The notes under the pieces are model-generated. The model saw only the letters and a list, made by a program, of their open reading frames with translations. It had not been told where the DNA came from and made no database searches. 64,000 bases of DNA from an uncultured Actinomycetota bacterium (GTDB taxonomy: Bacteria > Actinomycetota > Actinomycetes > JACCUZ01): contig CAWCFV010000002.1 in assembly GCA_963794995.1 (NCBI GenBank), positions 747,849 through 811,848 of the forward strand, given 5' to 3'. The position numbers were made by a program, and so were the translations under genes. Below are positions 4,068 through 44,177 of this stretch, piece after piece (within the stretch, counting starts at the first letter, position 1; every line of letters starts with the position of its first letter).

Positions 4068-4071
4068 GCGG

Positions 4072-20229: not shown

Positions 20230-20304
20230 CCCAGGACGCTACTGAACCGCCGGCGCACGTCATCGACCGCAGCCCGGTCTGCTCGGTCCGGTCCCGTGGC
20301 CCGG

Positions 20305-27417: not shown

Positions 27418-28913
27418 GCGGGCAGCTCGGGCCGCTGGTCCGGTTGCGCTGGCGGATGGTGCGCGGCGTCCGGGCCCGGCTCGGCTTCGCGCTCCTGTCG
27501 GCGGCGGTACCCGCCCTCTGCCTCGCGACGGTCGTCGCCGGACGCCTGCTCCCCCAGGACCGCAGCATCGACGTCCTGCTCCTGGCCCCGACCGCCTACC
27601 TGTCCGTGGCCGTCCTCGCGGCGCTGGCGCCGCTGGTGGCCGGCGGCGGGAACGAGCTCTTCCCGTCCGAGCAGCTGGCCGCGTACCCGGTGACCGCCCG
27701 CACGCAGTACCTCGCGTCCTTGGCGCTGACCCCGCTGAACCTTGCCTGGACCACGCAGGTGGCGGCCCTGCTCGGCCTCACGGCCTACGTGACGCCCGCG
27801 CCGGCCCGGCTCTCGCTGGCCCTGGCGACCTGCCTGGCGTACGTCGCCGTCGTCACCGTGGTGGGGCAGGCGGTCGGGTGGGCAGTCGTCGGAACCCGCA
27901 CCCGCCGCCGCGGCCGACAGGCGACCTGGGGCCTGGCCGGCGCCCTGCTGGGCCTGGCTCTCGCGACGGTCGCGACCGGGCAGGTGGGCGAGCTCCTCGA
28001 CCGCTCCCCCACGACCTGGGTCGTGATCGGTGCCGCCTCGGGGCGTCCCGGCCTGTACCACCAGTGGGCGCTCATCACGGTCGCCCTGGTGCTCCTCGCC
28101 TTCGTCGGCGACCGGCTGGGCCGGCTGGCCTGCGCCTGGGCGCTGCGTCAGCCGGGAGAGGCCACCGGTCGGCTCGACGCCCGGCCGCTGCGCCGCCGCT
28201 CGCCGGCCGCAAGCACCCACCGGGCCCTGCTCGCGCTCGACCGCGCCAGTGTCTGGCGCTCCGGGTCGCTGCGGCGCGGGCTGCTGGTGCTCAGCGTGCT
28301 GCCGGGCGGGGTCGCGGCCGTCGCCGGGCTGGACTGGGCCTCGATGGTCCTGCTCCCGGGACTCGTCGCCTCGGGTGCCGGCCTCCTGTTCGGAGTGAAC
28401 GCCTTCTGCCTCGACGGCGCCGGCGCGGTCTGGCTCGGCTCGCTGCCCGGCCGCCCGGCGGACGCGTTCTGGTCCAAGGCGCGGGTCACCGCCGAGACCT
28501 GCCTGGCCGCGGTCGTCCTCACCCTGCTGGCCGGCTCGGCCCGGGCCGGCGCGGCTCCGACCGCGGCAGAGGTGACAGCGCTGGTGGCATGCACGGCGGT
28601 CGTCCTGCTGCGCGTGGTCGCCCTGTCGATGGAGCTGTCCGTGCGGCGGCCGCACCGCGCCGACCTGCGCGGGCCCCGCGACACGCCCGCCCCGCCGGGC
28701 GTGATGGCCGCCTACTCCGCCCGGCTGGCCCTCACGACGACCCTGGTGGCCGTGCTCTTCTCCGCGCTGGCCGAGGTGGCGCCGTGGCAGTGGCCGCTCT
28801 ACGTGGCCGTGCCGTTCCTCCTGCTCAGCGCGCGCCGCCTGCTCGTGGCCGGCCGCGCCTGGGCGAGCCCCGCGGTGCGCGCACGGGTCATCTCGGTGGT
28901 GGCCGCAGGCTGA
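27414..28913 (+). CDS. Multi-TM ABC-2-type permease (putative), coupled to upstream ATPase
   Basis: The start overlaps the ATPase stop (ATGA). ~10–12 hydrophobic segments. No sequence motif beyond topology. Confidence 0.5.
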   Translation: MSGQLGPLVRLRWRMVRGVRARLGFALLSAAVPALCLATVVAGRLLPQDRSIDVLLLAPTAYLSVAVLAALAPLVAGGGNELFPSEQLAAYPVTARTQYLASLALTPLNLAWTTQVAALLGLTAYVTPAPARLSLALATCLAYVAVVTVVGQAVGWAVVGTRTRRRGRQATWGLAGALLGLALATVATGQVGELLDRSPTTWVVIGAASGRPGLYHQWALITVALVLLAFVGDRLGRLACAWALRQPGEATGRLDARPLRRRSPAASTHRALLALDRASVWRSGSLRRGLLVLSVLPGGVAAVAGLDWASMVLLPGLVASGAGLLFGVNAFCLDGAGAVWLGSLPGRPADAFWSKARVTAETCLAAVVLTLLAGSARAGAAPTAAEVTALVACTAVVLLRVVALSMELSVRRPHRADLRGPRDTPAPPGVMAAYSARLALTTTLVAVLFSALAEVAPWQWPLYVAVPFLLLSARRLLVAGRAWASPAVRARVISVVAAG

Positions 28914-29061
28914 GCGCGGGCCGCCGATCCGGGCATTCAGCCCCCAATCGGCCACCGGCTCGCCTACGGTCGGTGTGTCGATCGCCCCGTTGGACGCTCG
29001 ACCGACAAGACTGTCACGGCTCCGGCTCAACTCGGCCGCGAACGTACCGATTGAAGGACCT

Positions 29062-29793
29062 ATGGGACGTCGCACGCTCCTCCTGATCGCCGCGCTCGTC
29101 GTCGCCGCCCTCGGGACCACCGGCGTCTTCCTGTACGTCAACGGCGTCGACGAGCGTGCAGGTGCCGACTTCGAGCTCGTCGAGATCCTCGTCGCCACCG
29201 CGCCCATCGACGCGGGGACCACGGCCCAGTCGGCCAGCGAGCTCGGCGCGATGGACCTGCGGGAGTACCTCGCGAAGAGCATCGAGGGCCTGCCCGCCCT
29301 CAGCGACATCTCGTCCATCGCCACCCAGGTGGCGCTCGCACCGATCGTCCCCGGAGAGCCCATCCTGGCGTCCCAGTTCGGCGAGTCGGCCGACACCAGC
29401 TCGCTGCCCATCCCGGACGGCAAGCTGGCCGTCAGCGTCGAGCTCGGGAACCCGGCCCGGGTCGCCGGCTTCGTCGGGCCCGGCGACGAGGTCGCCATCA
29501 TGCTCACGACCGGTGACGAGAGCGGCGACAACGGGGGCGCGACCCTGGTGACCCGGGTGCTGCTGCCGAACGTGCAGGTCATCGCGGCGGGCGCCACGAC
29601 CGTGGTGCCGGCCGCCGGCGCGCAGGCCGAGCAGGTGCCCAGGACCATCCTCACGCTGGCGGTCGACCAGGACCAGGCCCAGAAGGTCGTGTACGGCTCC
29701 CAGAACGGCACCATGTACTTCGCCCTCCGGGGCAAGGACGCCCGGGTCGACCCGAACGACACCGGTACCACGGCCAGGAACCTGTTCGACTGA
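29062..29793 (+). CDS. cpaB: Flp pilus assembly protein CpaB (SAF/RcpC domains)
   Basis: N-terminal TM (LLLIAALVVAALGTTGVFLYV). SAF-like region. Position at the head of the tad operon. Confidence 0.8.
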   Translation: MGRRTLLLIAALVVAALGTTGVFLYVNGVDERAGADFELVEILVATAPIDAGTTAQSASELGAMDLREYLAKSIEGLPALSDISSIATQVALAPIVPGEPILASQFGESADTSSLPIPDGKLAVSVELGNPARVAGFVGPGDEVAIMLTTGDESGDNGGATLVTRVLLPNVQVIAAGATTVVPAAGAQAEQVPRTILTLAVDQDQAQKVVYGSQNGTMYFALRGKDARVDPNDTGTTARNLFD

Positions 29794-31001
29794 TGACCGC
29801 GATCGTCGACCTCGACCCGAACGTCTCCGGCGCCCTGCAGGCGGCCCTGGGGCCCGAGAGCCTGCTGCTGCCCTCCCTCGACGCGCTGCGCCGGCACCTC
29901 GAGACCCACTTCGCCGAGGACGTCGTCGTGCTCGGCCCGACGGTCGACCAGGCGGCGGCGCTCGCTCTCGCCGCAGCGATGCGGGTGACCCGTCCGAGCC
30001 TTGCCGTCATCCTCGTCCGGCGCCGGGTCGACACCTCCGTGCTCACCGACGCGCTGCGTTCAGGCGTCTTCGAGGTCATCGAGGAACGCGACCTCGCCGG
30101 TCTCAACAGCGCGGTGCGACGTGCGCGCGACCTGGCCCGGCAGCTGCGCGAGACGGTCGAGGGCGCGACGGCCCCGAGCGAGTCGGTCAGCCGCGGCCAG
30201 CTGATCACGGTGTTCTCGGCGAAGGGCGGGTGCGGCAAGACCACGCTCGCCACCAACCTCGCCGCGGCGCTGGCCGACCGTGGGCGCCGCGAGGTCTGCC
30301 TCGTGGACCTCGACCTGGCCTTCGGCGACGTGGCCATCGCCCTGCAGCTGTTCCCGGCGCACACGATCGCCGACGCCGTGCCGCTCGCGGACAGCCTCGA
30401 CGCCTCCGCACTGATGTCCTTGCTGACCCCGCACTCACCCGGGCTGACGACGCTCGTCGCCCCGATCGAGCCGGGAACGGCCGAGTCGATCCCCGCCTCG
30501 CTGGTGTCGACCGTCCTCACGCTGCTCAAGCAGCAGTTCGACTTCGTGGTCGTCGACACCCCGCCGGCGTTCGACGACCACGTGCTCGCGGCCTTCGACC
30601 AGAGCGACATGGTCGCCCTGCTCGCCACGCTCGACATCCCGGCGCTGAAGAACCTCAAGCTCACGCTGGAGACCCTCGACCTGCTCAACTACCCCCGCGA
30701 ACGGTGGCGGCTGGTGCTCAACCGGGCCGACTCGAAGGTCGGCCTGGCCGTCGGCGAGGTGGAGAAGACGCTCAAGGCACCGATCGCGGCCCAGATCCCC
30801 AGCTCGCGCGACGTCCCCGCGTCCATCAACCGCGGGGTGCCCATCGTGCTCGACGACCCGAAGCACCCGGTCAGCCTCGCGATCAAGGCCTTCGGCGAGA
30901 GCAACGTCGCGGCCAGCAGCGCCACGAGCAGCGGGGACATCCCGGCCGAGCTGCGCACCGACCGGCGCGGCCTGCTCCGCCGCAGGGCGAGGACGACATG
31001 A
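29793..31001 (+). CDS. tadZ: TadZ/CpaE pilus-assembly ATPase (pseudo-receiver N-domain + MinD/ParA-like ATPase)
   Basis: Deviant Walker A ITVFSAKGGCGKTTLATNLA. ...VVDTPPAFDDHVLAAFDQSD. Confidence 0.8.
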   Translation: MTAIVDLDPNVSGALQAALGPESLLLPSLDALRRHLETHFAEDVVVLGPTVDQAAALALAAAMRVTRPSLAVILVRRRVDTSVLTDALRSGVFEVIEERDLAGLNSAVRRARDLARQLRETVEGATAPSESVSRGQLITVFSAKGGCGKTTLATNLAAALADRGRREVCLVDLDLAFGDVAIALQLFPAHTIADAVPLADSLDASALMSLLTPHSPGLTTLVAPIEPGTAESIPASLVSTVLTLLKQQFDFVVVDTPPAFDDHVLAAFDQSDMVALLATLDIPALKNLKLTLETLDLLNYPRERWRLVLNRADSKVGLAVGEVEKTLKAPIAAQIPSSRDVPASINRGVPIVLDDPKHPVSLAIKAFGESNVAASSATSSGDIPAELRTDRRGLLRRRARTT

Positions 31002-32398
31002 GCCTGGCCGACCGCCTCGCCGCCGCCAAGCGCGAGCGCGGCGACACACCGTCGGAGGGCAGGCCCGGCGCCAACGAGGGCAGCTTCGTCTCCGCCGCGC
31101 CGCGGGCCCGCCGCAGCGTCGACCCGTTCGGCGACCTCAAGCGCACCGTCCACCAGACCCTGCTGGACAGCCTCGGACCCAAGCTCTACGACTCGCGGCT
31201 CACCCAGTCCGACCTGGAGCAGAAGGTCCGCCAGACGCTGCAGGAGGTGCTGGCGCAGGAGGAGACCCCGCTGACGGTCGTCGACCGCGCACGGATCGCC
31301 CAGGAGATCGCCGACGACATCCTGGGCTACGGGCCGCTGGAGCCCTACCTGCGCGACCCGGACATCACCGAGGTCATGGTCAACGGCTTCGACGCGATCT
31401 TCATCGAGCGCAGCGGCCGGGTGCACCCGGTCGAGGGCACCTTCACCGACGAGGCGCACCTCCGGCGCACCATCGACAAGATCGTGGCCCGGGTCGGTCG
31501 ACGCGTCGACGAGTCCAGCCCCATGGTCGACGCCCGCCTGCCCGACGGCAGCCGCGTGAACGCCGTCATCCCCCCACTGGCGATCGACGGCTCGCTGCTC
31601 ACGATCCGCAAGTTCTCCGCCGACCCGTACATGGTCGAGGACCTCATCGGCTTCGGCACGATGAGCCGCGGTGTGGCGGACTTCCTCGAGAAGTGCGTGC
31701 GCGGCAAGCTCAACATCCTCGTCGCAGGCGGTACCGGCGCCGGCAAGACCACCACGCTGAACGTCCTGTCGTCCTTCATCCCCGGCGACGAGCGCGTCAT
31801 CACCATCGAGGACGCCGCCGAGCTGCAGCTGCACCAGGAGCACGTCCTTCGCCTGGAGGCCCGCCCGCCCAACATCGAGGGACGCGGTGAGGTCAAGATC
31901 CGCGACCTCGTCCGCAACTCGCTTCGCATGCGGCCCGACCGCATCGTCGTCGGCGAGATCCGCGACGCCGCGGCACTGGACATGCTCCAGGCCATGAACA
32001 CCGGCCACGACGGCTCCATCTGCACCGTCCACGCCAACGCCCCGCGCGACGTGCTGTCCCGCGTCGAGACCATGGTGCTCATGGCGGGTGTCGACCTGCC
32101 CGTGCGCGCCATCCGCGAGCAGGTGTCCAGCGCCATCGACCTGATCGTGCAGCAGGCGCGCTTCAAGGACGGCACCCGGCACCTCACCCACGTCACCGAG
32201 GTGGTCGGCATGGAGGGTGAGGTCATCACCATGCAGGACCTGTTCCTCTTCGACCACACCGCCGGCTTCGACGAGGCCGGCCGAGCGCTGGGAACGCTGA
32301 AGTCGACCGGGCTCCGGCCGAAGTTCCTCGACAAGCTGGCTGCCTCCGGCGTCACGGTCGACCCGACGATCTTCGCGTTCGAGAAGTTCGGGCGATGA
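30998..32398 (+). CDS. cpaF: CpaF/TadA secretion ATPase (VirB11/T2SS-E family)
   Basis: Walker A NILVAGGTGAGKTTTLNVL. ...ITIEDAAELQL...RPDRIVVGEIRD...MNTGHDGSICTVHAN. Start overlaps the tadZ stop. Confidence 0.9.
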   Translation: MSLADRLAAAKRERGDTPSEGRPGANEGSFVSAAPRARRSVDPFGDLKRTVHQTLLDSLGPKLYDSRLTQSDLEQKVRQTLQEVLAQEETPLTVVDRARIAQEIADDILGYGPLEPYLRDPDITEVMVNGFDAIFIERSGRVHPVEGTFTDEAHLRRTIDKIVARVGRRVDESSPMVDARLPDGSRVNAVIPPLAIDGSLLTIRKFSADPYMVEDLIGFGTMSRGVADFLEKCVRGKLNILVAGGTGAGKTTTLNVLSSFIPGDERVITIEDAAELQLHQEHVLRLEARPPNIEGRGEVKIRDLVRNSLRMRPDRIVVGEIRDAAALDMLQAMNTGHDGSICTVHANAPRDVLSRVETMVLMAGVDLPVRAIREQVSSAIDLIVQQARFKDGTRHLTHVTEVVGMEGEVITMQDLFLFDHTAGFDEAGRALGTLKSTGLRPKFLDKLAASGVTVDPTIFAFEKFGR

Positions 32399-34398
32399 CC
32401 GGGGGCCGTCCCCTCGCCGCGCTCGCCCTTCTCGGCCTCGCGGGACTGCTGGCCCCGGCCGCGGCCGCGACCCCCAGCGCATCCCCCACCGCGACCCCGG
32501 CCGCCTCGTCCACCGGGGCCCCGGCCGCGGTGCCGTCAGGCAGCATCGCCCTGGCGACCCGCGACGACGGGCAGCTGCGGGTCGTGTTCCAGGCCGAGGG
32601 CCTTCCTCGGGGCACCACGATCGACCCCGCCAGCGTCACGGTCACGATCGGCGGCACGAGCATCGGCACTCTCGACGTGCAGCCGGTCGACGACGGCGAG
32701 CCGCTCGACCAGACCACGGTGCTGGCCATCGACACCAGCAAGAGCATGGGCCGGCTGGACAAGCTGGCCTCCGCCCAGAACGCGGCCAAGGAGTTCGTGG
32801 ACCTGCTCCCGGCCGACGTCATGGTCGGCCTGGTCACCTTCGCCGACGTCGTCGAGGCCCCGCTGGCACCCACCGGCGACCACGCGGCCGTCAAGGCCGC
32901 GATCGACGCCCTGCAGGTGAGCACGGTGACCGGGACCGCGTTGTTCGACGGTGCCGCGCGCGCGGTCGACCAGACCGGGGCCGGGGGTGTCCGCAGCGTG
33001 CTGCTGCTGTCCGACGGCAACGACTTCGGCACCAGCGCCACGACGCCCGACGCCGTCGTCGGCACGGCCACCGAGGCCGGCGTGCTGATCGACGCGGTCT
33101 ACATCGGCTCGTCCGCCGTCGCCCCGGACCCGCTCGCCGTCATGGTCGACGGCACCCGGGGCACGGTGGCGAAGGCCGGGACCGCCGACCTGTCAGCAGT
33201 GTTCCGGCAGGTCGCGCAGGACATCGCGACCCGCATCAGCATCTCTGCGACGCTGCCCGACGGGTTGCCCGACTCGGCCCAGGTGGTGGTCACGGCCCTC
33301 GCGGGTGACGTGCGGCTCGACGACAGCGTGACGTCCTTCGCGTCCGGGGAGCCCGCGCAGCCCCGGATCGTCGGGCCGAGGAGGGTGCCGGTCCCCTCGT
33401 CACTGTTCCCGGCCGCCGCCCTGCCCTTCCTGCTCGGAGCGATGTTCCTCGGCCTGCTCGTCATCGTCTACGTCGCGCTGGGCACCGTGCGCCGCGACGA
33501 GAAGCAGGGCCGGCTGCGGCGTCGGCTCTCGCTCTACACCCTCAGCGGGCGGACACCGGCGAAGCAGCAGCAGGACACCACGGTGCTGGGCAGCAGCCAG
33601 GTCGCCAGGTCGGCTGTCGAGCTCGCCGGCAAGGTCGTGGAGAAGCGCGACTTCGAGGGCGCGCTCTCCCTGCGCCTGGACGCGGCCGGCGTCCCGCTGC
33701 GGGCGGCGGAGTGGATGATCATCCATATCGGCGTCGCGATCTCGACCGCCTTCCTGCTCCTCCTCGTGTCCGGCGGAGCGCTGCTGCCGACCCTGCTCGG
33801 GCTGGCCCTCGGGCTGGGCCTGCCGTGGGCCTACCTGCGGACCAAGGAGACCCGTCGGACCTCGTCCTTCCTCGCGCAGCTGCCCGACACCCTCCAGATG
33901 GTGGCCGGCAGCCTGTCCGCCGGCTACTCGGTGCCGCAGGCGATGGACACCGTCGTGCGCGAGGGTCAGCAGCCGATCACGGGCGAGTTCAACCGGGCGT
34001 TGATCGAGGCCAGGCTCGGCGTGCCGATGGACGACGCTCTCGACGGCATCGCCGAGCGGATGCACAGCAAGGACTTCGCCTGGGTCGTCATGGCCATCCG
34101 GATCCAGCGTGACGTGGGTGGCAACCTCGCCGAGCTGCTCACCACCGTGGCCGCGACGCTTCGCGAACGGGAGACGCTGCGCCGCCAGGTCCGGGTGCTG
34201 TCCGCCGAGGGCCGGCTCTCGGCGTGGATCCTCGGTCTGCTCCCCCCGGTGTTCGCGCTGTACCTCGTGCTGGCCCAGCCGGACTACCTGCGGCCGCTGG
34301 TGACCCAGGCGATGGGCTGGCTGCTGCTCGGCGTCGGCGGGGTGCTGCTCGCGGTCGGTGCCCTGTGGATGCGCAAGGCCGTACGGGTGGAGGTCTAG
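32395..34398 (+). CDS. tadB: Fusion protein: signal peptide + extracytoplasmic von Willebrand factor A domain + TadB (T2SS-F) platform domain
   Basis: Signal peptide LAALALLGLAGLLAPAAAA. VWA MIDAS motif (LAIDTSKSMG ... LLSDGND). Then TM helices and a T2SS-F region (LPDTLQMVAGSLSAGYSVPQAMD...DALDGIAERM). Confidence 0.75.
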   Translation: MTGGRPLAALALLGLAGLLAPAAAATPSASPTATPAASSTGAPAAVPSGSIALATRDDGQLRVVFQAEGLPRGTTIDPASVTVTIGGTSIGTLDVQPVDDGEPLDQTTVLAIDTSKSMGRLDKLASAQNAAKEFVDLLPADVMVGLVTFADVVEAPLAPTGDHAAVKAAIDALQVSTVTGTALFDGAARAVDQTGAGGVRSVLLLSDGNDFGTSATTPDAVVGTATEAGVLIDAVYIGSSAVAPDPLAVMVDGTRGTVAKAGTADLSAVFRQVAQDIATRISISATLPDGLPDSAQVVVTALAGDVRLDDSVTSFASGEPAQPRIVGPRRVPVPSSLFPAAALPFLLGAMFLGLLVIVYVALGTVRRDEKQGRLRRRLSLYTLSGRTPAKQQQDTTVLGSSQVARSAVELAGKVVEKRDFEGALSLRLDAAGVPLRAAEWMIIHIGVAISTAFLLLLVSGGALLPTLLGLALGLGLPWAYLRTKETRRTSSFLAQLPDTLQMVAGSLSAGYSVPQAMDTVVREGQQPITGEFNRALIEARLGVPMDDALDGIAERMHSKDFAWVVMAIRIQRDVGGNLAELLTTVAATLRERETLRRQVRVLSAEGRLSAWILGLLPPVFALYLVLAQPDYLRPLVTQAMGWLLLGVGGVLLAVGALWMRKAVRVEV

Positions 34399-35343
34399 AT
34401 GCAGGCGGAGCTGCTCCTGGTGCTGGGCCTCGGTGGCATCTTCCTCGCCATCGCGATCGCCCTGGCCACCATGGGCGCCATCACGACCGAACGCCAGCAG
34501 GTCTCGCGGTCGCTCGCCGCCGTCGAGGCGGTCAGGGCCGCACCGCGGGAGATGCAGAACGAGCTCAGCAGGCCGTTCGGCGAGCGCGTCGTCGTCCCGA
34601 TGATGGCCCGGTTCACCCAGGTCGGCCGACGGCTCACCGCGGGCGACCAGGTGGCCCGGATCAGGCACCGGCTGCAGCTGGCGGGCAACCCGCCGCAGTG
34701 GGACGTGGACCGCGTCATCGCGTTCAAGATGCTCGGGCTGCTCGGCGGCCTGGCGCTGGGCATCGCCCTGCCCGTCCTGCTGGGCACCGGCGTCCTGCCC
34801 GTGCTGGGCTTCGCGTTGATCTTCTCCGTGGTCGGCTTCTTCGGGCCGAACATGGCCATCTACCAGCTTGGCTACAACCGCCGCGAGCAGATCCGGCGGG
34901 AGCTGCCCGACGCCATGGACCTGCTGACGATCTCCGTCGAGGCCGGACTGGCGTTCGACTCCGCGCTCTCCCAGGTGGCGCGCAACACGACCGGTCCGCT
35001 GGCCGAGGAGTTCTTCCGGGTGCTCCAGGAGATGCAGATCGGCCTCGGCCGGATCGAGGCGCTGCGGGCCCTCGGCGAGCGGTCGGACCTGCCCGAGCTC
35101 CGTGGGTTCATCACCTCGATGGTGCAGGCCGACGCGTTCGGCATCCCCATCGCGGCCGTCCTGCGGGTCCAGGCGAAGGAGATGCGCACCAAGCGGCGCC
35201 AGCGCGCCGAGGAGCTGGCGCAGAAGGTGCCGGTCAAGATCCTGTTCCCGCTGATCTTCTGCATCCTGCCGTCGCTGTTCGTCGTGATCCTCGGCCCGGC
35301 AGCCATCACGATCTTCCAGTCGTTCAGCGGGCGCCTCGGCTGA
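34399..35343 (+). CDS. tadC: TadC (T2SS-F family platform protein)
   Basis: ELPDAMDLLTISVEAGLAFDSALSQVARNT...FITSMVQADAFGIPIAAVLRVQAKEMR, a T2SS-F signature. Confidence 0.8.
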   Translation: MQAELLLVLGLGGIFLAIAIALATMGAITTERQQVSRSLAAVEAVRAAPREMQNELSRPFGERVVVPMMARFTQVGRRLTAGDQVARIRHRLQLAGNPPQWDVDRVIAFKMLGLLGGLALGIALPVLLGTGVLPVLGFALIFSVVGFFGPNMAIYQLGYNRREQIRRELPDAMDLLTISVEAGLAFDSALSQVARNTTGPLAEEFFRVLQEMQIGLGRIEALRALGERSDLPELRGFITSMVQADAFGIPIAAVLRVQAKEMRTKRRQRAEELAQKVPVKILFPLIFCILPSLFVVILGPAAITIFQSFSGRLG

Positions 35344-35436
35344 CCGGGCGCGGGCGGCACCGGGACGACACGCCCGGCGAGGGCGATCCCCCCGAGAACC
35401 GGGCCTGCGCCCGCCCGCTGTGACAGCGTCGCGCCC

Positions 35437-37038
35437 ATGGCTGTGTCGACCCTGAAGGCGCTGCGGCTGGACCAGCGCGTGGTCCTCGCCGTCCGGGGCA
35501 GCCTGCTCCTCGTCGGGTGCGTCCTCGCTCTCGTCCAGCGTCGCGAGCCGGCCGACGTCGCCTCGGTGGTGCTGCTCGTCGCGGTGGCGGTGGCCGCCAC
35601 CGCCCCCCTGCCCCGGGCCTGGCAGCAGGCGGCGCCGTTCCAGCCGGTCGCCGAAGCGGTGCTGGCCTGCTGCGTGATGCTCCTCGTCGAGCCGCTTCCG
35701 GAGACCCTGCTGCCCTACCTCCTCGCCCCGGCCCTGGCGGCGGGGCTGTGGGGCGGGGTGCGCACCGCGGTGACCGCCGCCGGCCTCGGTGCACTCGTGC
35801 TCATGCTCGGCAAGCTGCTGGGTGACGAGCCGCTGTCCTGGACCAGCTACCTCGGGCTGGTGAGCAGGTGGGCGCTGATCACGCTCGCGGTGGGGCTGCT
35901 CGGCGCCTGGGTCGGACGGCTGCAGACCGCCGGAGCCGCGCAGACGGAGAACGTCGCCTATGCCGCCGCGTACCGGCTGATCTCGCAGCTGAGGCTGGTC
36001 GCCCGCCAGCTCTCCGGCGGGCTCGACCCGGTCAGCCTCGGCCAGCAGATGCTCGAGCAGGTGAACCGCGCGGCCCCCTTCGACCGCGGCGCGGTCTACG
36101 TGCGCTCCAGCGGCAGCCGGCTCTCCCCGGTCACCTTCCTCGGTGCCGACCGGCTCGAGTGGGACGTCGAGAACCCGTTGTTCGACGAGGCGTGGGCCTC
36201 CAGCACCGTGATGCGCTCGGCGCACCCGCTGACGAGTGGGGGCACCGGCTGCTCGGCCGTGCTGCCGCTTCGGATCGGTCTGCGGACCTTCGGCCTGATC
36301 GCTGTCGAGCGCTCCGGCGCCGCCGCACAGTTCGAGCAGGCTCAGCTCGAGGCAGCCGAGAGCGTGCTCGAGGAGCTCGGCCTACGGCTCGAGACCGCGC
36401 TGCTGTTCAGCGAGGTCCGCAGCCTCGCCACCGCCGAGGAGCGCCGCCGCCTGGCGCGCGAGATCCACGACGGCATCGCCCAGGAGCTGGCGTCGATGGG
36501 CTACATCGTCGACGACCTCGCCGCGCGCGCCCGCTACCTGCCCGACCTCGAGGCCGACCTCAAGACTCTGCGCGGCGAGCTGACCCGGGTGATCAGCGAG
36601 CTGCGCCTGTCGATCTTCGACCTGCGCAGCGAGGTGCAGACCACGACAGGCCTCGGCACCGCCCTGTCGGACTACGTGCGCCAGGTGGGCGCCAGCTCGA
36701 ACCTCACCGTGCACCTGGTGCTCGACGAGACACCGGTACGGCTCCCGGTCGACTCCGAGACCGAGCTGCTGCGCATCGCGCAGGAGGCCGTGACCAACGC
36801 CCGCAAGCACGCCAACGCCCACAACCTGTGGGTCACCTGCCGGATCGACCCGCCGAGCGCCTACCTCGCGGTGTCCGACGACGGAGCGGGGCTCGGCACC
36901 CCCCGCAACGACAGCTTCGGCCTCGAGGTCATGCGCGAGCGGGCCGAGCGGATCGGGGCCCGGCTCGCCGTGGGGAACCGCCCGGAGGGCGGCACGACGG
37001 TCGAGGTGACGCTAGGTAGCCCCCGGTTCGCCGACTAG
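35437..37038 (+). CDS. Sensor histidine kinase (multi-TM N-term, GAF-like middle, HisKA_3 + HATPase_c)
   Basis: H-box LAREIHDGIAQELASMGY. ATPase ...EAVTNARKHANAHNLWVTCRIDPPSAYLAVSDDGAGLG...GLEVMRERAERIGARL. Confidence 0.75.
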   Translation: MAVSTLKALRLDQRVVLAVRGSLLLVGCVLALVQRREPADVASVVLLVAVAVAATAPLPRAWQQAAPFQPVAEAVLACCVMLLVEPLPETLLPYLLAPALAAGLWGGVRTAVTAAGLGALVLMLGKLLGDEPLSWTSYLGLVSRWALITLAVGLLGAWVGRLQTAGAAQTENVAYAAAYRLISQLRLVARQLSGGLDPVSLGQQMLEQVNRAAPFDRGAVYVRSSGSRLSPVTFLGADRLEWDVENPLFDEAWASSTVMRSAHPLTSGGTGCSAVLPLRIGLRTFGLIAVERSGAAAQFEQAQLEAAESVLEELGLRLETALLFSEVRSLATAEERRRLAREIHDGIAQELASMGYIVDDLAARARYLPDLEADLKTLRGELTRVISELRLSIFDLRSEVQTTTGLGTALSDYVRQVGASSNLTVHLVLDETPVRLPVDSETELLRIAQEAVTNARKHANAHNLWVTCRIDPPSAYLAVSDDGAGLGTPRNDSFGLEVMRERAERIGARLAVGNRPEGGTTVEVTLGSPRFAD

Positions 37039-37039
37039 G

Positions 37040-37693
37040 GTGACGCACGTGTCCACCACCGTCGTGCTGGTCGATGACCACGAGCTGATCCGACAGGGCC
37101 TGCGTCGCGCCTTCGAGCGCACCGGCGACTTCAGCGTCGTCGGCGAGGCCGGAAGTGTCGCCGAGGCGCTGGAGGTCATCGCGTCGACCGAGCCGGACGT
37201 CGTGATCTTCGACGTGCGGCTGCCCGACGGCAGCGGGCTCGACGCGGCCAAGAAGATCCGCGAGGGCTTCCCCACCATGGGCATCGTGGTCCTGACGATG
37301 TACGCCGGCGACGAGCAGCTGTTCGGCGCGCTCGAGGCCGGCGCCTCCGCCTTCGTCCCGAAGGACGCCCCGGCGGACGACGTGATCTCCGCAGCCCGGC
37401 ACGCCGCGGTCTCGCCGCGCGCCTTCACCGCGAACGACCTGGCCGGCGCCATGCAGCGTCGGCTCACCCCCTCCGGCCCGCAGCTCAGCCCGCGCGAGCG
37501 TGAGGTGCTCACCCTGCTGGCCGACGGCCTCGGCGTGGCGGCGATCTCCAAGCAGCTCTACATCAGCGAGTCGACCACCAAGACCCACATCTCCAAGGTC
37601 TACGAGAAGCTCGGGGCGGCCAACCGTGCGCAGGCCCTGATGACCGCGATGCGGCTCGGCCTGATCAAGAATCCGGCGGAACCCGGCTACTGA
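37040..37693 (+). CDS. NarL/LuxR-family response regulator
   Basis: Receiver VVLVDDHELIRQGL...VVIFDVRLPDGSG. LuxR HTH LSPREREVLTLLADGLGVAAISKQLYISESTTKTHISKVYEKL. Confidence 0.85.
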   Translation: MTHVSTTVVLVDDHELIRQGLRRAFERTGDFSVVGEAGSVAEALEVIASTEPDVVIFDVRLPDGSGLDAAKKIREGFPTMGIVVLTMYAGDEQLFGALEAGASAFVPKDAPADDVISAARHAAVSPRAFTANDLAGAMQRRLTPSGPQLSPREREVLTLLADGLGVAAISKQLYISESTTKTHISKVYEKLGAANRAQALMTAMRLGLIKNPAEPGY

Positions 37694-37699
37694 CCCCAC

Positions 37700-37869
37700 C
37701 CCCGCGGCAGTTCTTTGCCAAGATTTGGGGTCAGCCGTTCGTACCATCTACGTCGATCCGGACGAGCCATGCGCGAAGAATGTGCCACGGTCGATCATTG
37801 GTAGTGCACCGCTCGGGCTCGCGTGGGTCCCGGCACCGTCGTCACGGGCCATAACCGGAGGAAAAGCAC
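37700..37869. promoter_or_regulatory. Relatively AT-rich intergenic region upstream of the flp pilin genes (probable strong promoter region)
   Basis: GC content drops visibly (e.g. ttctttgccaagatttgggg...cgaagaatgtgccacggtcgatcattggtag). Contains a TTGCCA -35-like hexamer. Ends in the AGGAAAAGCACATG RBS/start of flp1. Confidence 0.3.
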
Positions 37870-38064
37870 ATGCTCGCCTACATCCGCAAGGTGACCGCCG
37901 AGAAGGACAGCGGCGCGTCTGCCGTGGAGTACGGCCTCCTCGTCGCTGCCATCGCCGCGCTCATCGTCATCATCGTCTTCGCGCTCGGCGGCCTCGTCCG
38001 GGACGTGTTCAAGGACACCTGCTCGAAGATCGACGCGCAGTCCTCGGCCAGCGCCAGCTGCTGA
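37870..38064 (+). CDS. flp: Flp/Fap family type IVc pilin (prepilin)
   Basis: 64 aa. Leader + G/ASAVEYGLLVAAIAALIVIIVFALGG, the G/XXXXEY Flp processing motif and hydrophobic stem. C-terminal tail KDTCSKIDAQSSASASC. Confidence 0.8.
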   Translation: MLAYIRKVTAEKDSGASAVEYGLLVAAIAALIVIIVFALGGLVRDVFKDTCSKIDAQSSASASC

Positions 38065-38070
38065 CCGACG

Positions 38071-38103
38071 CCGGGTGGTGGTCGCGCGGCGGCCACCACC
38101 GGG
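38071..38103. terminator. Imperfect hairpin between flp1 and flp2 (possible intra-operon attenuator)
   Basis: CCGGGTGGTGG-tcgcgcggcgg-CCACCACCGGG: 11-bp arms with one mismatch and an 11-nt loop, read directly. Confidence 0.3.
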
Positions 38104-38127
38104 TGAGCAGACGAAGGACGTGACGGA

Positions 38128-38301
38128 TTGCCCTCGCGCGACGACCGCGGTGCCTCGAGCGTCGAGTACGCCTTGCTGCTCACGGCCATCGCCGCGGTGA
38201 TCGTCATCGCCGTCTTCGCGCTCGGCGGCACGGTGCGGGCGATGTTCACGGACACGTGCTCCCAGATCCAGTCCCAGGTCCCCTCCGCCACCAGCTGCTA
38301 G
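38128..38301 (+). CDS. flp: Second Flp family pilin (TTG start inferred)
   Basis: LPSRDDRG/ASSVEYALLLTAIAAVIVIAVFALGGTVRAMFTDTCSQIQSQVPSATSC, same architecture as flp1. AAGGA RBS 9 nt upstream of the TTG. No in-frame ATG/GTG upstream before the stop at 38104. Confidence 0.6.
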   Translation: MPSRDDRGASSVEYALLLTAIAAVIVIAVFALGGTVRAMFTDTCSQIQSQVPSATSC

Positions 38302-38303
38302 TC

Positions 38304-39950
38304 GTGGCAACCGGCCCGCAGCTCGTCACCCCGACAGCTCCCGCGGCGGCCAGCGGGCCGGCCGGACAGAGCAGCACCCGGCTGGGCTGGTCCTCCCTGC
38401 TGGTCGTGCTCGGCGTCTCGGCGGCGCTGTCGCTGCTCCTCGGGCAGGACGCCAACGGCGACCAACGCCTGGCGCACGTGCCCGCCGTCTGGCTCGCCCT
38501 GCACCCCGGACTCGACCCCCTGCTCAGCCCCGGGTCGTACTCCGGCCTGTTCCCCAGCACCTGGAACATCCCGTGGTTCCTGCTGACCCAGCATGCGCCC
38601 GCCTGGGTCGCCGTCGTCTACCTGGGGGTCCTGCACGGCGTGGCCGTGTGGCTGTCCGCGGCGATCACCTGGACCCTGCTCCGAGCCACGTCCCGTGGGC
38701 TGCGCCTCGGGCTCACCTGCCTTGCGACCTTGTTCGCCTTCATCGCCCCCGCGACCCTTGCCGAGTTCGGCACCACGTTCGGCGACATCGCTACCGCCGT
38801 TCCGATCCAGGCCGCGTTGCTGGTGTACCTGCGCAGGCCGGAGCACGAACCGGTGGCCCGTGGTCGAGCGCTCCTCGTCGGGCTCCTCGTCGGGACCGCC
38901 TTCGGCCTCAAGTTCACCAACGTGACCGCGGTGGTCGCCCTTGTCGTCGCCGTCGCCGCGGTCGAGGTCCGGTACCGCAACCTGGTCCGATCAGGTGCGG
39001 CTCTCGCGCTCGGGACCGCTCTGGGCACGCTCGCCGGAGCGGGGTGGTGGGGCTGGCTGATGTGGGACCGCTTCGGCAACCCCCTCTTCCCTCTGTACAA
39101 CGGCATCTTCCGCTCGCCCTTCCTCCCGGCCGTCAACCCCCATGACCCGCACTTCATGGACCTGTCGTGGCTCGAGCGCCTGTCGATGCCGCTGCGGATG
39201 CTGTCGCTCGAGACGTACCCGAGCGAGTGGTGGGGCAGGGATGCCCGCTGGTTCCTGCTCGCGCTGCTTGCCGCCGCGGTGGTGGCCCACCGCCTCGTCC
39301 TGCGGCGTCGCGACCGAGGAGCAGCACGACCCGGGATCGTCAGCAGTGACCATCGGCGCCTCGTGCTCGTCTACGTGGCCACCGGGTGGGTGGTCTGGCT
39401 GGCGCTGTTCGACATCGCCCGCTACCTGGTGGCCTTCGAGCTCCTGAGCGGCGCCCTGCTCGTGCTGCTCGTCGACTTCTTCCCGCTCCCGAAGGTCCGC
39501 GTCCTCCTCGCCGTCGCCATGGCCTGCATCATCACGGCTGCAGCGGTCGCCGTCCCCGGCTGGACCCGACGCGACAACCAGGGCGACTGGTTCGCGTTCT
39601 CGCCGAACAGCCTGGTCGAGCAGCCGGACCTGCTCGTGGTCTATCCCGGCACCGGCATGCTCAACTTCACGGTGATCGCGCTACCGCCCGACGCAGTCTC
39701 GGTCCGGGTGCCGGCCGCCTTCGGCGACCCGCGCAGCGACTGGCCGTCCCCCTGGCAGGGTGACCGTGAGATCACCGACCTGGTGGCCGAGCACGACGGG
39801 CCGGTCGTCTCCGTCAGCTGGCGGTCGCAGTTCCGCCTGGTGACGCGAAACGCGACGCGGTACGGCTTCGCCGTGGACCGCAAGGAGTGCCGGCCCTGGC
39901 GCAACAAGTTCGACACCGCCCTGGTCTGCCCGTGGGTGCGCCGGCGTTGA
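38304..39950 (+). CDS. GT-C fold membrane glycosyltransferase, GT87/DUF2029-like (polyprenyl-phosphate-sugar dependent, mannosyltransferase-like)
   Basis: ~11 TM segments with conserved loop motifs (NIPWFLL, FGLKFTN, WDRFGNPLFPLYNGIFRSP, ARYLVAFELL). Paralog of the next gene. The GTG starts 2 bp after the flp2 stop. Confidence 0.6.
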   Translation: MATGPQLVTPTAPAAASGPAGQSSTRLGWSSLLVVLGVSAALSLLLGQDANGDQRLAHVPAVWLALHPGLDPLLSPGSYSGLFPSTWNIPWFLLTQHAPAWVAVVYLGVLHGVAVWLSAAITWTLLRATSRGLRLGLTCLATLFAFIAPATLAEFGTTFGDIATAVPIQAALLVYLRRPEHEPVARGRALLVGLLVGTAFGLKFTNVTAVVALVVAVAAVEVRYRNLVRSGAALALGTALGTLAGAGWWGWLMWDRFGNPLFPLYNGIFRSPFLPAVNPHDPHFMDLSWLERLSMPLRMLSLETYPSEWWGRDARWFLLALLAAAVVAHRLVLRRRDRGAARPGIVSSDHRRLVLVYVATGWVVWLALFDIARYLVAFELLSGALLVLLVDFFPLPKVRVLLAVAMACIITAAAVAVPGWTRRDNQGDWFAFSPNSLVEQPDLLVVYPGTGMLNFTVIALPPDAVSVRVPAAFGDPRSDWPSPWQGDREITDLVAEHDGPVVSVSWRSQFRLVTRNATRYGFAVDRKECRPWRNKFDTALVCPWVRRR

Positions 39951-39952
39951 GC

Positions 39953-41530
39953 ATGGCTCCGGCGCGGGAGAGCGTCACCGGCTCCCCGGCAGGGGGCGCT
40001 GCCGTCGGCTCGCGGACCCAGGTCCTGGTCGCCGCGGTCGCCCTGCTCGCGCTCTGGACTCTGGGGGCGCTCCTGTCACTGCTGCGCGGCCAGGACGCCA
40101 GCGGTGACCATCGCGGCTCGCACGTGTCAGCCGTCTGGACGCTGCTGCACCCCGACCAGGACGTCGCCCTCAGCCCGGACGCGTGGATCCCGGGCACCGT
40201 CAACATCCCGTGGTTCCTCCTGGCACTGCACGCTCCAGCCTGGGCGGCGACCGCCTACCTCGGTGCCCTGCACGCCACCGCGATCTGGCTGGTGATGCTT
40301 CTCGCCTGGCGACTGCTGGACCGGCCCGACCTCGCGGCGAGGTGCGCGCTGACAGTCATGTGCGGTGCCTTCGCCGTCGTCGGCGCCACGTTCCGCACCG
40401 AGTTCGCGACGACCTTCTCCGACGTCTCGACCGCTCTGCCCCTCCTGGGTGCGCTGCTCTGCCTGCTGTGGGGAGGAACGGTGGGACCCAGGCGCCTGAC
40501 GGCTGCGGGGCTGTTGCTCGGCGTGGCCTTCGGGCTCAAGATGACGAACCTGCTCTACGTCCTCGCCTGCCTGACCGCCGTGGTGACCCTGCCCCTGGCC
40601 GACTCGCGGCCGCGCGCCCTCCTGCGCACGTCCGCTGCCGCAGCCGTCGGCGCGGCGGTGTCCGTCGGGTACGTCTGGTGGGAGTTCCTGGGGCGGTTCG
40701 GCAGCCCGATGTTCCCGTTCTTCAACCAGCTCTGGCGCTCGCCCTACGCGCCGCCGGTGAACTACCACGACGGGCGCTTCCTGCCCGAGACGCCGGCCGA
40801 GCTCCTGCTGCTTCCCTGGCGGATGGCCTCGGTGAGCGGGTTCCCGAGCGAGCTTCCCGGCCGGGACCCTCGCTGGGCGGTCCTCGCCTCGCTGCTCGTT
40901 CTTGCCCTGGTCGTCCGAGGCGCCCGGCGTCGACACGACCTCGCCGTGGCGCCGCCGGACCCGCGCGTGCGGTTCCTGCTGGTCTTCCTCGGGTCTGCCT
41001 GGGCCGTCTGGGTGGTGATGTTCGGCATCGCCCGCTACCTGCTGGCGATCGAGCTCGTGGTCGGCGTCGTCGTCGTCGCTGTGGCAGCACCCCTGGTCCA
41101 GCGGCAGCGGTGGGTGGTGACGGCCATGGCCGTCCTGCTCGTCGCGGCGACCGCCTCGACCACGGTGCCCTCGTTCGCCAGGCAGCCGGTGCCCGACGGG
41201 AGCTGGTTCGCCTTCTCCACCTCGCCGGTCACCGACCAGCCTCGGACGCTCGTCGTCTTCCTCGGGGGGTCGACGACCTACCTCATCGCGGCCTTCCCCG
41301 ACGACGCACGTCTGGTCGAGCTGCCGACCCTCCCCGGACGGCTCACCAGGGAGAGCTACCGCGTGATCGCCGCCCACCGCGGCCCGGTGGTGACCGTCCA
41401 GCGGTCCGGCGCCGGCGCGGGACGGGCGCTGCTGGCCCCAACCGGTCTCACCGGGACGCCCGAGTGCACCGTCGTGTCCAGCAACCTCGGCAGCGTCCGT
41501 GCGTGCGCGTGGCCTAGCCGAGCAGACTGA
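39953..41530 (+). CDS. GT-C fold membrane glycosyltransferase, GT87/DUF2029-like (paralog)
   Basis: Same motif positions as the previous gene (NIPWFLL, FGLKMTN, WEFLGRFGSPMFPFFNQLWRSP, ARYLLAIELV). Starts 2 bp after its stop. Confidence 0.6.
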   Translation: MAPARESVTGSPAGGAAVGSRTQVLVAAVALLALWTLGALLSLLRGQDASGDHRGSHVSAVWTLLHPDQDVALSPDAWIPGTVNIPWFLLALHAPAWAATAYLGALHATAIWLVMLLAWRLLDRPDLAARCALTVMCGAFAVVGATFRTEFATTFSDVSTALPLLGALLCLLWGGTVGPRRLTAAGLLLGVAFGLKMTNLLYVLACLTAVVTLPLADSRPRALLRTSAAAAVGAAVSVGYVWWEFLGRFGSPMFPFFNQLWRSPYAPPVNYHDGRFLPETPAELLLLPWRMASVSGFPSELPGRDPRWAVLASLLVLALVVRGARRRHDLAVAPPDPRVRFLLVFLGSAWAVWVVMFGIARYLLAIELVVGVVVVAVAAPLVQRQRWVVTAMAVLLVAATASTTVPSFARQPVPDGSWFAFSTSPVTDQPRTLVVFLGGSTTYLIAAFPDDARLVELPTLPGRLTRESYRVIAAHRGPVVTVQRSGAGAGRALLAPTGLTGTPECTVVSSNLGSVRACAWPSRAD

Positions 41531-42644
41531 CCAGGCGCGCGGCAGCGGCCGTCCAGGTCCAGCGCTCCGCCACCCAGGTGCACCCGGCGGTGCCGAGCCT
41601 GCGGCGCTGCGCCTCCGAGGACAGCAGCGGGACCAGCGCCGCCGCCACCGCGGCCGGGTCGCCGCCGTCGACGACCGCACCCGTCTCGCCGTCCCGGACG
41701 GCGTCGACCGCGCCGCCGGAGTTGCCGGCGACGACGGGGAGGCCGGTCGCGGAAGCCTCGAGGAAGACGATGCCGAGGCCCTCGACCTCGAAGCCCAGCC
41801 TGCGGGTCCGGCAGGGCATGGCGAAGACGTCACCGGCCGCGAAGTACGGCGGCAGCTCGGCCCACGGCTTGGCGCCGGCGAGCACCACATCAGCGGCGAT
41901 CCCGAGCTCGGCAGCGAGCCGCTCGAGCTTCGGGCGCATCGGGCCGTCGCCGACGAGCAGCAGGGCGGCGTCGGGCACCGAACGCTGCACCAGCGGTAGG
42001 GCCTTGACCAGGGTGTCCTGGCCCTTGCGTTCGACCATCCGCGAGACGCAGACGACCACCGGACGGTCGCCGAGCCCGTATCGCTCGCGCACCGGTCCCC
42101 CGTCGACCGACGGGTTGAAGGCGTCGGTGTCGACACCCGGCGTGAGCTGGACCATCCGGCCGGCCGCAGCCGGCGACAGCGCTCTGGCGATCTGCGAGCG
42201 CGTGTACTCCCCCAGGTAGGTCAGCACGTCGTTGGTCTCACCGATCCGACGCAGCAGCGCCCGGGTGCCGGGTGCCTTCGCCCACCAGACCTCGTGACCG
42301 TGCGTCGTGGCCACGGTGCGGCGCACCCCGGCACGTGCGCGCAGCGCCGGGGCCATCAGCCCCAACGGCGCTGCGGCGCCGAACCAGACCGTGTCGCAGC
42401 CGTGGGAGCGGGCCAGCGAGACCGCCCGCCGGGTGATCGCCGGGGTGGGCAGCATCAGCCGGGCCGGGTCCCGGACCACCGGGAAGGGCAGCGTGGCGTC
42501 GAACTCGGCGTCGCCGGGCTGCCGGGCCGTGTGCACCACCACGCGGTCAGGGTCCATCCGCTGCACCATCGCGAGCACGAACGACTCGATGCCGCCGACC
42601 CGCGGGGGGAAGTCGTTGGTGACGACAAGGGTGCGACCGGCCAC
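41514..42644 (-). CDS. GT4 (GT-B) glycosyltransferase, PimB-like mannosyltransferase
   Basis: ...VERKGQDTLVKAL...FAMPCRTRRLGFEVEGLGIVFLEASATGLPVVAGNSGGAVDAV, the GT4 EX7E region. Its 3' end overlaps the convergent GT87 paralog by ~17 bp. Confidence 0.75.
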   Translation of the reverse strand: MAGRTLVVTNDFPPRVGGIESFVLAMVQRMDPDRVVVHTARQPGDAEFDATLPFPVVRDPARLMLPTPAITRRAVSLARSHGCDTVWFGAAAPLGLMAPALRARAGVRRTVATTHGHEVWWAKAPGTRALLRRIGETNDVLTYLGEYTRSQIARALSPAAAGRMVQLTPGVDTDAFNPSVDGGPVRERYGLGDRPVVVCVSRMVERKGQDTLVKALPLVQRSVPDAALLLVGDGPMRPKLERLAAELGIAADVVLAGAKPWAELPPYFAAGDVFAMPCRTRRLGFEVEGLGIVFLEASATGLPVVAGNSGGAVDAVRDGETGAVVDGGDPAAVAAALVPLLSSEAQRRRLGTAGCTWVAERWTWTAAAARLVSLLG

Positions 42645-44103: not shown

Positions 44104-44177
44104 GGTCGGCGATCCTACGGGACGAATCGCCCACGACGGCACCCTCGCGTCCCCGCCGAGGCGGCCGTCCGGCCGCA

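Follow-up and report, generated by a model that had tools for sequence, protein, structure and literature searches.

Tandem flp pilin genes followed by two putative GT-C glycosyltransferases in an actinobacterial Tad locus: a candidate pilin-glycosylation cassette

Tad/Flp pili are widespread organelles of adhesion, biofilm formation and DNA uptake and occur, among Actinobacteria, in Mycobacterium, Bifidobacterium, Micrococcus and Cutibacterium. We know of no enzyme or linked gene identified as responsible for the glycosylation of Flp1, the major pilin of Aggregatibacter actinomycetemcomitans. The modification itself, a mass shift from 5.1 to 6.2-6.5 kDa, is reported in PMC6182317, citing Inoue et al. 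2000; in the Tad pilus of Caulobacter no glycan density was seen (PMC10710030). In the pilus system of Pseudomonas, tfpW, a GT-C glycosyltransferase gene located immediately downstream of the pilin gene pilA, is required for pilin glycosylation (10.1101/2020.04.19.049825), a modification that protects against pilus-specific phages (10.1101/150227). Thus, a GT-C pilin glycosyltransferase beside pilA and a reportedly glycosylated Flp1 are already known; a cassette of flp and GT-C genes we did not find described, and our search of the full-text literature yielded no enzyme for Flp glycosylation. Here, we analyse such a cassette at the 3' end of the Tad locus in a 64,000-nucleotide stretch of DNA (the window) from an uncultured Actinomycetota bacterium (GenBank assembly GCA_963794995.1, contig CAWCFV010000002.1, positions 747,849 to 811,848, forward strand), where two flp genes are followed by the genes of two paralogous GT-C proteins.

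By analogy with pilA-tfpW, and with moderate confidence, we propose that these pilin-linked GT-C enzymes glycosylate the exposed C-terminal loop of the Flp pilins, which would give pilus glycoforms that vary between strains. A pilin-linked glycosylation module had been put forward in the original prediction, made from the letters of the window; the idea has gained comparative support from the recurrence of the flp-GT-C pairing, a second GT-C family in the same slot and type IVa pilin neighbours of more distant relatives. Genes were called from the frame pattern of guanine-plus-cytosine (GC) content at third codon positions (GC3) and named with Pfam, the GC content of the window being ~72-74%. 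Together with an independent public gene call, which gave the identical four open reading frames (ORFs) of 64, 57, 548 and 525 amino acids (aa) for the two pilins and the two GT-C proteins, they bore out the gene order, coordinates and spacings predicted for positions 28975-42644. Both pilins, whose C-termini are those initially quoted, score above the gathering threshold of PF04964 (36.2 and 33.4 versus 32.2 bits). The spacers from flp2 to GT-C 1 and from GT-C 1 to GT-C 2 are of 2 bp each, counted from the preceding stop codon, which suggests translational coupling, and the convergent gene of a GT4 glycosyltransferase overlaps GT-C 2 by 17 bp.

The likeness of the window enzymes to TfpW from strains of Pseudomonas aeruginosa/paraeruginosa that belong to group IV (pilA-tfpW-tfpX) is drawn from the published description of the latter. 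Both are GT-C proteins with ~11 transmembrane (TM) helices encoded directly 3' of, and co-directional with, a major pilin gene (10.1101/2020.04.19.049825, 10.1101/150227). Both carry an acidic motif in the first outer loop, essential in periplasmic loop 1 of TfpW and conserved in the window proteins, and in both cases accessory gene and pilin allele differ in concert from strain to strain. TfpW modifies Ser/Thr residues of the pilin with a sugar from a polyprenyl-phosphate donor, and the same is proposed, by analogy, for the window enzymes. The differences are several: the pilin is here a Flp protein of ~49 residues (type IVc/Tad) and not globular and of type IVa, a monoderm actinobacterium is the host, a small alpha/beta domain with two Cys stands at the C-terminus instead of a periplasmic TPR domain (a Pfam scan found no TPR domain in the window GT-C proteins), the loop-1 motif is D-x3-D instead of DDX, and there are two paralogous enzymes. 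A further resemblance, that of YNGIFRSPF in the window to the TfpW motif YX6PFX7P, was discarded, as the Tyr of this Y-x6-P-F pattern is not conserved across the family. Aggregatibacter Flp1 is comparable as a major pilin of the Flp/Tad class for which glycosylation is reported (PMC6182317), but its host is Gram-negative.

The two GT-C proteins are 41% identical to each other (E = 3e-81). A Pfam scan of both at E ≤ 1 yielded nothing except one chance DUF7533 match of 12 bits, an NCBIfam scan gave no match, and searches of PDB sequences, with one protein and with a 54-sequence profile, found nothing meaningful, so that a comparison of folds was needed. The AlphaFold2 model of GT-C 1 (predicted local distance difference test score, pLDDT, 81.8; predicted template modelling score, pTM, 0.84) has 11 TM helices and a C-terminal mixed alpha/beta domain (residues 420-548) with two invariant Cys, which fit with an extracytoplasmic domain. 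Foldseek retrieved with this model exclusively GT-C enzymes, ArnT and ALG9 ranking first. The predicted structure thus shows the polytopic fold common to PMT, ArnT, OST, Alg and Emb/Aft enzymes, and on this model we place the window proteins in the GT-C superfamily with high confidence as to fold, without claiming a specific subfamily. Since ArnT and ALG9 came first, a specific closeness to PMT is not robust. PimE, one of the structures against which a comparison had been suggested, is not the closest solved structure.

The acidic motif GQDANGD lies in the first outer loop, after TM1. Among 54 family members, all have its D53 and at least 90% its D49; both are invariant within the flp-linked clade described below. 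From the positively charged N-termini of homologues we infer that this loop is outside the membrane; the sugar donor is presumably polyprenyl-phosphate-linked. Across the same clade, diverged to ~40% identity, the Asp residues of the catalytic loop and ~60 positions are invariant, and the GC3 of the GT-C genes is coding-like (0.91-0.92), which argue for purifying selection. A word-indexed homologue search had given only 11 relatives, as if the family were tiny; this was overturned by an exhaustive profile search, which found 5997 family representatives at E ≤ 1e-3, with 2604 still found at E ≤ 1e-30. At 50% identity, the family thus numbers ~6000 representatives; its window members are covered by no Pfam model.

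The initial label 'GT87-like' holds solely as a remote, sub-threshold relationship seen through this wider family. The window proteins themselves have no match to the GT87 profile; weak GT87 matches appear in 6 of 54 family members scanned (best 6e-6), PMT_2 matches, also weak, in 4 of the 54, and NCBI or UniRef give some distant members the label 'glycosyltransferase 87' or 'DUF2029'. Relatives linked to PilA (see below) reach 19-23 bits against the GT87 profile PF09594, whose cutoff is 25. What the window proteins share with GT87/DUF2029 enzymes such as PimE and Rv2181 is, besides these labels and weak PF09594 matches of distant members, the GT-C fold and the occurrence in Actinobacteria. 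They differ from the GT39 enzymes (yeast Pmt1/2/4; actinobacterial Pmt such as Rv1002c), as neither a PMT or PMT_2 profile match nor MIR or 4TMC domains were found in them, and Pmt is a general, unlinked enzyme whereas the window GT-C genes are linked to their presumed substrate.

BLAST among the retrieved representatives delimited a clade at 36-48% identity composed of the two window proteins, P0035, P0002, P0014, P0147 and P0099 (A-type), the remaining representatives being at most 32% identical to it. GT-C 2 has its closest relative in P0147 (47.5% identity). In all five of the other loci with readable upstream context, the GT-C gene follows directly after 2-3 tandem flp genes (Table 1), so that the recurrence of the adjacency, proposed at the outset as a comparative check, was found in every such clade member; the contig of P0002 is too short to show upstream genes. 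While the proteins encoded around the slot are 76-94% identical to those of relatives (response regulator 90-93%, CpaF 94% in L010 and L011, kinase 76-85%, TadC 83-85%), the clade GT-C proteins are only 36-48% identical; for the GT4, comparison with L010 and L014 gives 61-69% identity. This contrast marks the slot after flp as hypervariable, probably a fast-evolving or swapped cassette.

The two genomes nearest to the window, L010 (GCA_038246545.1) and L011 (GCA_016307145.1), are collinear with it from a ROK kinase through the Tad genes to flp, of which they have a single copy followed by a strong hairpin, and no member of the window GT-C family was found in their contigs. In L010, the slot after flp is occupied by a 456-aa protein that is GT-C by fold but unrelated in sequence to the window GT-Cs (B-type); that it could be a diverged homologue of these was rejected, with no BLASTP match and an hhalign probability of 0.5%. 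A B-type homologue, 40% identical, follows flp at a spacing of 10 bp in the more distant loci L037 and L038, and the GT4 follows the B-type gene in L010, L037 and L038. In L011, the contig ends in a fragment that, judged by eye, is an apparent B-type N-terminus. Every slot fully on contig thus holds a GT-C-fold enzyme, the fold having been tested for one A-type and one B-type member and the remaining slots assigned by homology, and the number of flp copies tracks the family of the enzyme (2-3 with A-type, one with B-type). Throughout this lineage, the gene after flp therefore appears to encode a GT-C enzyme, drawn from at least two unrelated sequence families. The L011 slot also contains, between flp and the B-type fragment, a 358-aa membrane protein of the PAP2_3 family (19695-20771), a third kind of lipid- or glycan-modifying enzyme at this position.

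The pilins vary as well. The two window prepilins carry the processing motifs G/ASAVEYGLL and G/ASSVEYALL (the slash marks the cleavage site). The predicted cleavage of Flp1 at G/ASAVEY yields a mature pilin of 49 aa ending in the loop C-SKIDAQSSASAS-C, and mature Flp2, also of 49 aa, ends in C-SQIQSQVPSATS-C; the orthologue of flp1 in L010, L011, L014 and L020 is the flp listed first or the only one there. All 15 Flp pilins collected share a near-invariant leader and helix, MLAYIRKV...G/ASAVEYGLLVAAIAALIVI.VFALG, and end in a variable Cys-x8-17-Cys loop, with a Ser/Thr content of 12-50% in the 14 of 15 for which it was tabulated. In this lineage (window, L010-L014, L020 and L037), the loop is the sole hypervariable part of Flp, and in most A-type loci its second Cys is the last residue of the protein. 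A disulfide bond probably closes it into a surface loop, which recalls the D-region in type IVa pilins. In the standard topology of type IV pilins, the C-terminal loop of the prepilin protrudes just beyond the membrane and is later exposed on the filament surface, a position that would be within reach of the GT-C active site.

A mechanism can be outlined from these elements. The genes flp2, GT-C 1 and GT-C 2, with flp1 just upstream, would form a pilin-plus-modification cassette in the hypervariable slot with which a conserved actinobacterial Tad locus ends on its 3' side. Flp prepilins would enter the membrane so that the leader stays inside and the Cys-Cys loop of ~15 residues at the C-terminus faces out; both GT-C enzymes, with their D-x3-D motif in the first outer loop, would take a polyprenyl-phosphate-linked sugar, probably supplied by housekeeping genes since the module contains no donor-synthesis gene, and the Ser/Thr residues of the loop would be O-glycosylated before or during pilus assembly. 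The two paralogues might act in sequence or one on each pilin. The outcome would be a Tad pilus with a glycan-decorated surface that differs between strains, in parallel to pilA-tfpW of Pseudomonas group IV. Of this picture, the analysis shows the gene anatomy, the fold, the conserved acidic motif, the recurring linkage to pilin genes and the hypervariability of the slot; acceptor, donor, type of linkage and biological role are inferred.

Beyond this lineage, we inspected 29 loci of distant family members (23-36% identity), a profile scan of genome contigs giving six distant loci. A motif scan found no Flp in the 29 loci, but three of them, L035, L034 and L024, contain a type IVa PilA (GFTLIELMIVVAIIGILAA...). 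In L034, pilA, GT2 and GT-C are contiguous, the last being split into ORFs 3734-4510 and 4507-5685. The GT2 proteins with a hydrophobic tail (Table 1), one of which also matches GT2_TM_C (PF26629), we take to be GtrB/ArnC-like. A gene upstream is common to L034 and L035, which may be related; we therefore put the independent occurrences at two to three. For the L035 enzyme, the homologues that carry names come from Burkholderiales and other Proteobacteria, and the PilA-linked loci are non-actinobacterial, at least one of them probably proteobacterial. Judged from these sequences, this is an arrangement of the pilA-tfpW type in a different phylum and pilin class, with the same GT-C family as in the window. 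The three metagenome contigs look, in their own right, like undescribed pilin-glycosylation islands. In a neighbour census, in which 109 neighbouring ORFs from 28 distant loci were pooled and profile-scanned, the commonest neighbour was GT2 (10 proteins), followed by methyltransferases, GtrA was also seen, and two proteins matched Pilin (PF00114) and N_methyl. The GT2 and GtrA neighbours, together with the hydrophobic tails of the L034 and L035 GT2 proteins, would point indirectly to a polyprenyl-phosphate-linked sugar donor.

These occurrences lead us to a broader proposal, for which our confidence falls somewhat short of even: an uncurated GT-C family, remotely related to GT87, may have been co-opted repeatedly to serve as a substrate-linked glycosyltransferase of pilins, in two or more classes of type IV filament (Flp/Tad in Actinobacteria and type IVa PilA in non-actinobacterial, probably proteobacterial bacteria), forming in the actinobacterial lineage, with duplicated flp, a hypervariable cassette that alternates at the same site with an unrelated GT-C family. 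Such a cassette would amount to an island that switches pilin glycoforms and, for Flp glycosylation, to the first genetic determinant. If the window GT-Cs do glycosylate the exposed Cys-Cys loop, they would be the first dedicated Flp glycosyltransferases, the cassette logic of pilin gene plus glycosyltransferase known from the type IVa pili of Pseudomonas would reach into the Tad class and into monoderms, a function would be gained for a large GT-C family without annotation (~6000 representatives), and strain-level variation of the Tad pilus surface, for instance in the evasion of pilus-binding phages, would be explained.

How the cassette is expressed bears on this reading. The 63-bp gap between flp1 and flp2 contains the hairpin originally predicted, a stem-loop whose stability was equalled by 4 of 200 shuffles and which has no U-tract; it is a probable factor-independent terminator or attenuator, and similar strong hairpins follow flp in L010, L011 and L012. 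The scan for canonical U-tract terminators is uninformative in DNA of 72% GC. The initial claim that pilins and GT-C genes are co-transcribed is therefore uncertain for flp1, after which the hairpin lies, the tight unit being flp2-GT-C1-GT-C2. The hairpin suggests flp1 as the abundant transcript, while expression of flp2-GT-C1-GT-C2 would depend on read-through or on a weak start inside the cassette. The ribosome-binding site of flp2 is GAAGGA, 9 nt upstream of its TTG codon. Upstream of flp1, the GC content drops well below the ~0.72-0.74 of the surrounding DNA (Table 1); no sigma-70 consensus was found there, such a scan being uninformative at 72% GC.

Several observations weigh against glycosylation of the Flp pilins by these enzymes. 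The support consists of sequence and predicted structure, and the module offers no donor-synthesis gene. Strong hairpins stand between flp and GT-C in L010 and L012, as one does between the two flp genes of the window, so that expression may be uncoupled. The family as a whole is not dedicated to pilins, as 26 of the 29 distant loci adjoin none, and some of its members have weak matches to, or labels of, GT87, whose enzymes act on glycolipids. Finally, the flp-linked loci share one backbone and thus represent a single actinobacterial lineage in which recurrence is not phylogenetically independent, so that independent support comes solely from the proteobacterial pilA cases and the second GT-C family.

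The same observations feed an alternative that we regard as unlikely, namely that the GT-C enzymes build or decorate an envelope glycoconjugate (a lipomannan-like lipoglycan or a wall polysaccharide), as the GT87 enzymes PimE and Rv2181 do, and lie after flp because the Tad locus was inserted beside an older glycolipid slot, a variable surface-structure island next to the PimB-like GT4. The GT87 signal in 6 of 54 family members, the label alpha-1,2-mannosyltransferase carried by one B-type homologue and the fact that most of the distant members have no pilin beside them but GT2 or methyltransferase genes, as is typical of glycan pathways, would all suit it, as would the terminator-like hairpins of L010 and L012 and the constant placement of GT-C between flp and GT4 wherever the downstream gene is identifiable in the lineage. 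However, the window proteins fail the GT87 profile outright, and the GT-C genes are co-directional with flp, at spacings of 2, 10 and 24 bp, and convergent to GT4, with which no shared transcript is possible. Moreover, L012 keeps flp-flp-flp-GT-C with a downstream gene that has no meaningful match to the window GT4 (33% over 39 aa), flp copy number follows the GT-C type, and the same family stands beside PilA in three non-actinobacterial loci.

A simpler form of this alternative, raised in the original prediction, was that the GT-C genes merely belong to a backbone with pimB and plsC. It is rejected: the sole PlsC-type acyltransferase gene (15862-17256) lies at a distance of 21 kb, and these GT-Cs are missing from the two closest genomes with the same backbone; the orientation of the genes and the L012 locus weaken it as well. 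In fact, the GT4, in a PimB-like position, is the backbone gene and lies outside the variable module. The window further contains genes for a PASTA kinase, two DAHP synthases, an acyltransferase, SRPBCC proteins, a FadD-like ligase, NlpC/P60, RNase T-GIY-YIG, AsnC, TrpD, CtaG, CtaE, QcrC and QcrA. We take this order to parallel Rv2176-Rv2194 of M. tuberculosis (PASTA kinase, AroG, acyltransferase, SRPBCC, FadD15-like, PimB-like GT4, RipC-like NlpC/P60, RNase T-GIY-YIG, AsnC, TrpD, CtaG, CtaE, QcrC, QcrA), into which a block of ABC transporter, Tad, flp and GT-C genes is presumably inserted between the FadD15-like and PimB-like genes.

It is very improbable that the GT-C enzymes glycosylate another extracytoplasmic Tad component, such as the TadE and TadG-like pseudopilins or the VWA domain of TadB, rather than the major pilins. 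The GT-C genes are indeed part of the Tad neighbourhood, which also has pseudopilins with the same prepilin motif, and in VWA-TadB an N-terminal signal and a linker rich in Ala/Pro/Ser/Thr precede the VWA domain. Yet the GT-C genes adjoin flp and not tadE, tadG or tadB, L037 keeps flp-GT-C without any VWA domain, and variation in step with GT-C is seen in the pilin loops and not in other components. Least credible of all is that the adjacency is meaningless, the flp-GT4 slot being a recombination hot spot that collects membrane-protein genes with a perhaps inactive GT-C: its content does vary (A-type, B-type, the PAP2_3 protein of L011), but the conservation pattern argues for purifying selection, a GT-C-fold enzyme sits in each complete slot, and pilin linkage recurs with PilA in unrelated loci.

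Table 1. Features of the Tad locus and its surroundings in the window, and gene orders of the related loci.
Feature or locus	Position	Strand	Evidence or gene order
TadG-like pseudopilin/assembly protein	20305-21585	-	Tad (PF13400) 26.5 bits, DUF7305
TadE-like pseudopilin	21567-22097	-	TadE 51 bits; G/ASALEF prepilin motif
CpaB/RcpC	29062-29793	+	PF16976, 79 bits
TadZ, ParA/MinD-like ATPase	29793-31001	+	AAA_31, ParA, CbiA matches
CpaF/TadA secretion ATPase	30998-32398	+	T2SSE, 207 bits
TadB platform protein with N-terminal extracytoplasmic VWA domain	32395-34398	+	VWA_2 and T2SSF
TadC platform protein	34399-35343	+	T2SSF, 70 bits
GAF-HisKA_3 sensor kinase	35437-37038	+	Pfam
NarL/LuxR-type response regulator	37040-37693	+	Response_reg and GerE
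Lower-GC intergenic region with GGAGG ribosome-binding site, presumed flp promoter region	37694-37869	+	GC 0.655-0.69
flp1, Flp prepilin, 64 aa	37870-38064	+	PF04964, 36.2 bits
Stem-loop after flp1	38069-38105	+	12-bp perfect core, -35 kcal/mol, z = -2.5
flp2, Flp prepilin, 57 aa, short leader, TTG start	38128-38301	+	PF04964, 33.4 bits
GT-C 1, GT-C fold glycosyltransferase, 548 aa	38304-39950	+	11 TM helices, GQDANGD motif
GT-C 2, paralogue of GT-C 1, 525 aa	39953-41530	+	~11 TM helices
Convergent GT4 glycosyltransferase	41514-42644	-	Glycos_transf_1, 125 bits
L012			flp-flp-flp-GT-C
L013			kinase-regulator-flp-flp-flp-GT-C, gap 24 bp
P0147 locus			TadB-TadC-...-kinase-regulator-flp-flp-GT-C-GT4; sole GT-C there
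L014			flp-flp-GT-C
L020 (metagenome scan)			flp-flp-GT-C
L037/L038			CpaB...TadC-kinase-regulator-flp-GT-C-GT4-NlpC/P60
L035	5234-8948		pilA, GT-C 29 bp downstream, GT2 with hydrophobic C-terminal tail
L034	1925-6823		pilA, GT2 with hydrophobic C-terminal tail, split GT-C, DegT aminotransferase
L024	2613-10825		two GT-Cs, TPR-sulfotransferase, pilA

The core of a Tad/Flp system (CpaF ATPase, two T2SSF platform proteins and TadZ) is present, but to call the locus 'complete', as was initially done, was an overstatement. No Peptidase_A24 prepilin peptidase (TadV/CpaA) was found among the ORFs scanned across the 64-kb window, its gene being presumably elsewhere in the genome, and the TadE and TadG-like genes lie ~7 kb upstream of the main Tad operon, outside the interval first delimited. 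Between these pseudopilin genes and the operon are a ROK kinase, SRPBCC proteins, a FadD-like ligase and an ABC transporter, in the same layout as in L011. Directly upstream of cpaB (26710-28913), an ABC ATPase and a 499-aa polytopic protein without Pfam or NCBIfam match form a pair that is kept in L010 and L011 and may be part of the Tad neighbourhood. For CpaB itself, the ATG start at 29062 fits better than the GTG at 28975 given before, which is possible as well.

The fusion of VWA and TadB seen in the window corresponds in L011 to two genes (VWA, 275 aa; TadB, 378 aa), and the VWA part is missing from L037. The kinase between tadC and flp is kept in the relatives whose contig covers that stretch, as judged from synteny. 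Between tadC and this kinase, L010 (14294-16888), L011 (14299-16774) and the P0147 locus encode a ~500-aa GAF-domain protein and a convergent KaiC/RecA-like ATPase (DnaB_C/AAA_25), both of which are missing from the window (35343-35437).

On the other side of the cassette, between GT4 and NlpC/P60, the minus strand of positions 42671-46918 encodes a secreted protein with a weak PKD match, a lipoprotein, an M48 peptidase and a MA-clan peptidase-like protein, whereas in L037 and L038 NlpC/P60 comes directly after GT4. An Rfam scan of the window gave no match, the window contains no rRNA, and the 79-nt tRNA-Gly (anticodon ACC) that ARAGORN reports at 45753-45831 on the minus strand, inside the 481-aa peptidase-like gene, is probably a false positive. 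At 13099-14004, between a sugar kinase and a two-component system, an ORF of lower coding bias has weak REase_MTES_1575/DUF559 matches and appears endonuclease-like.

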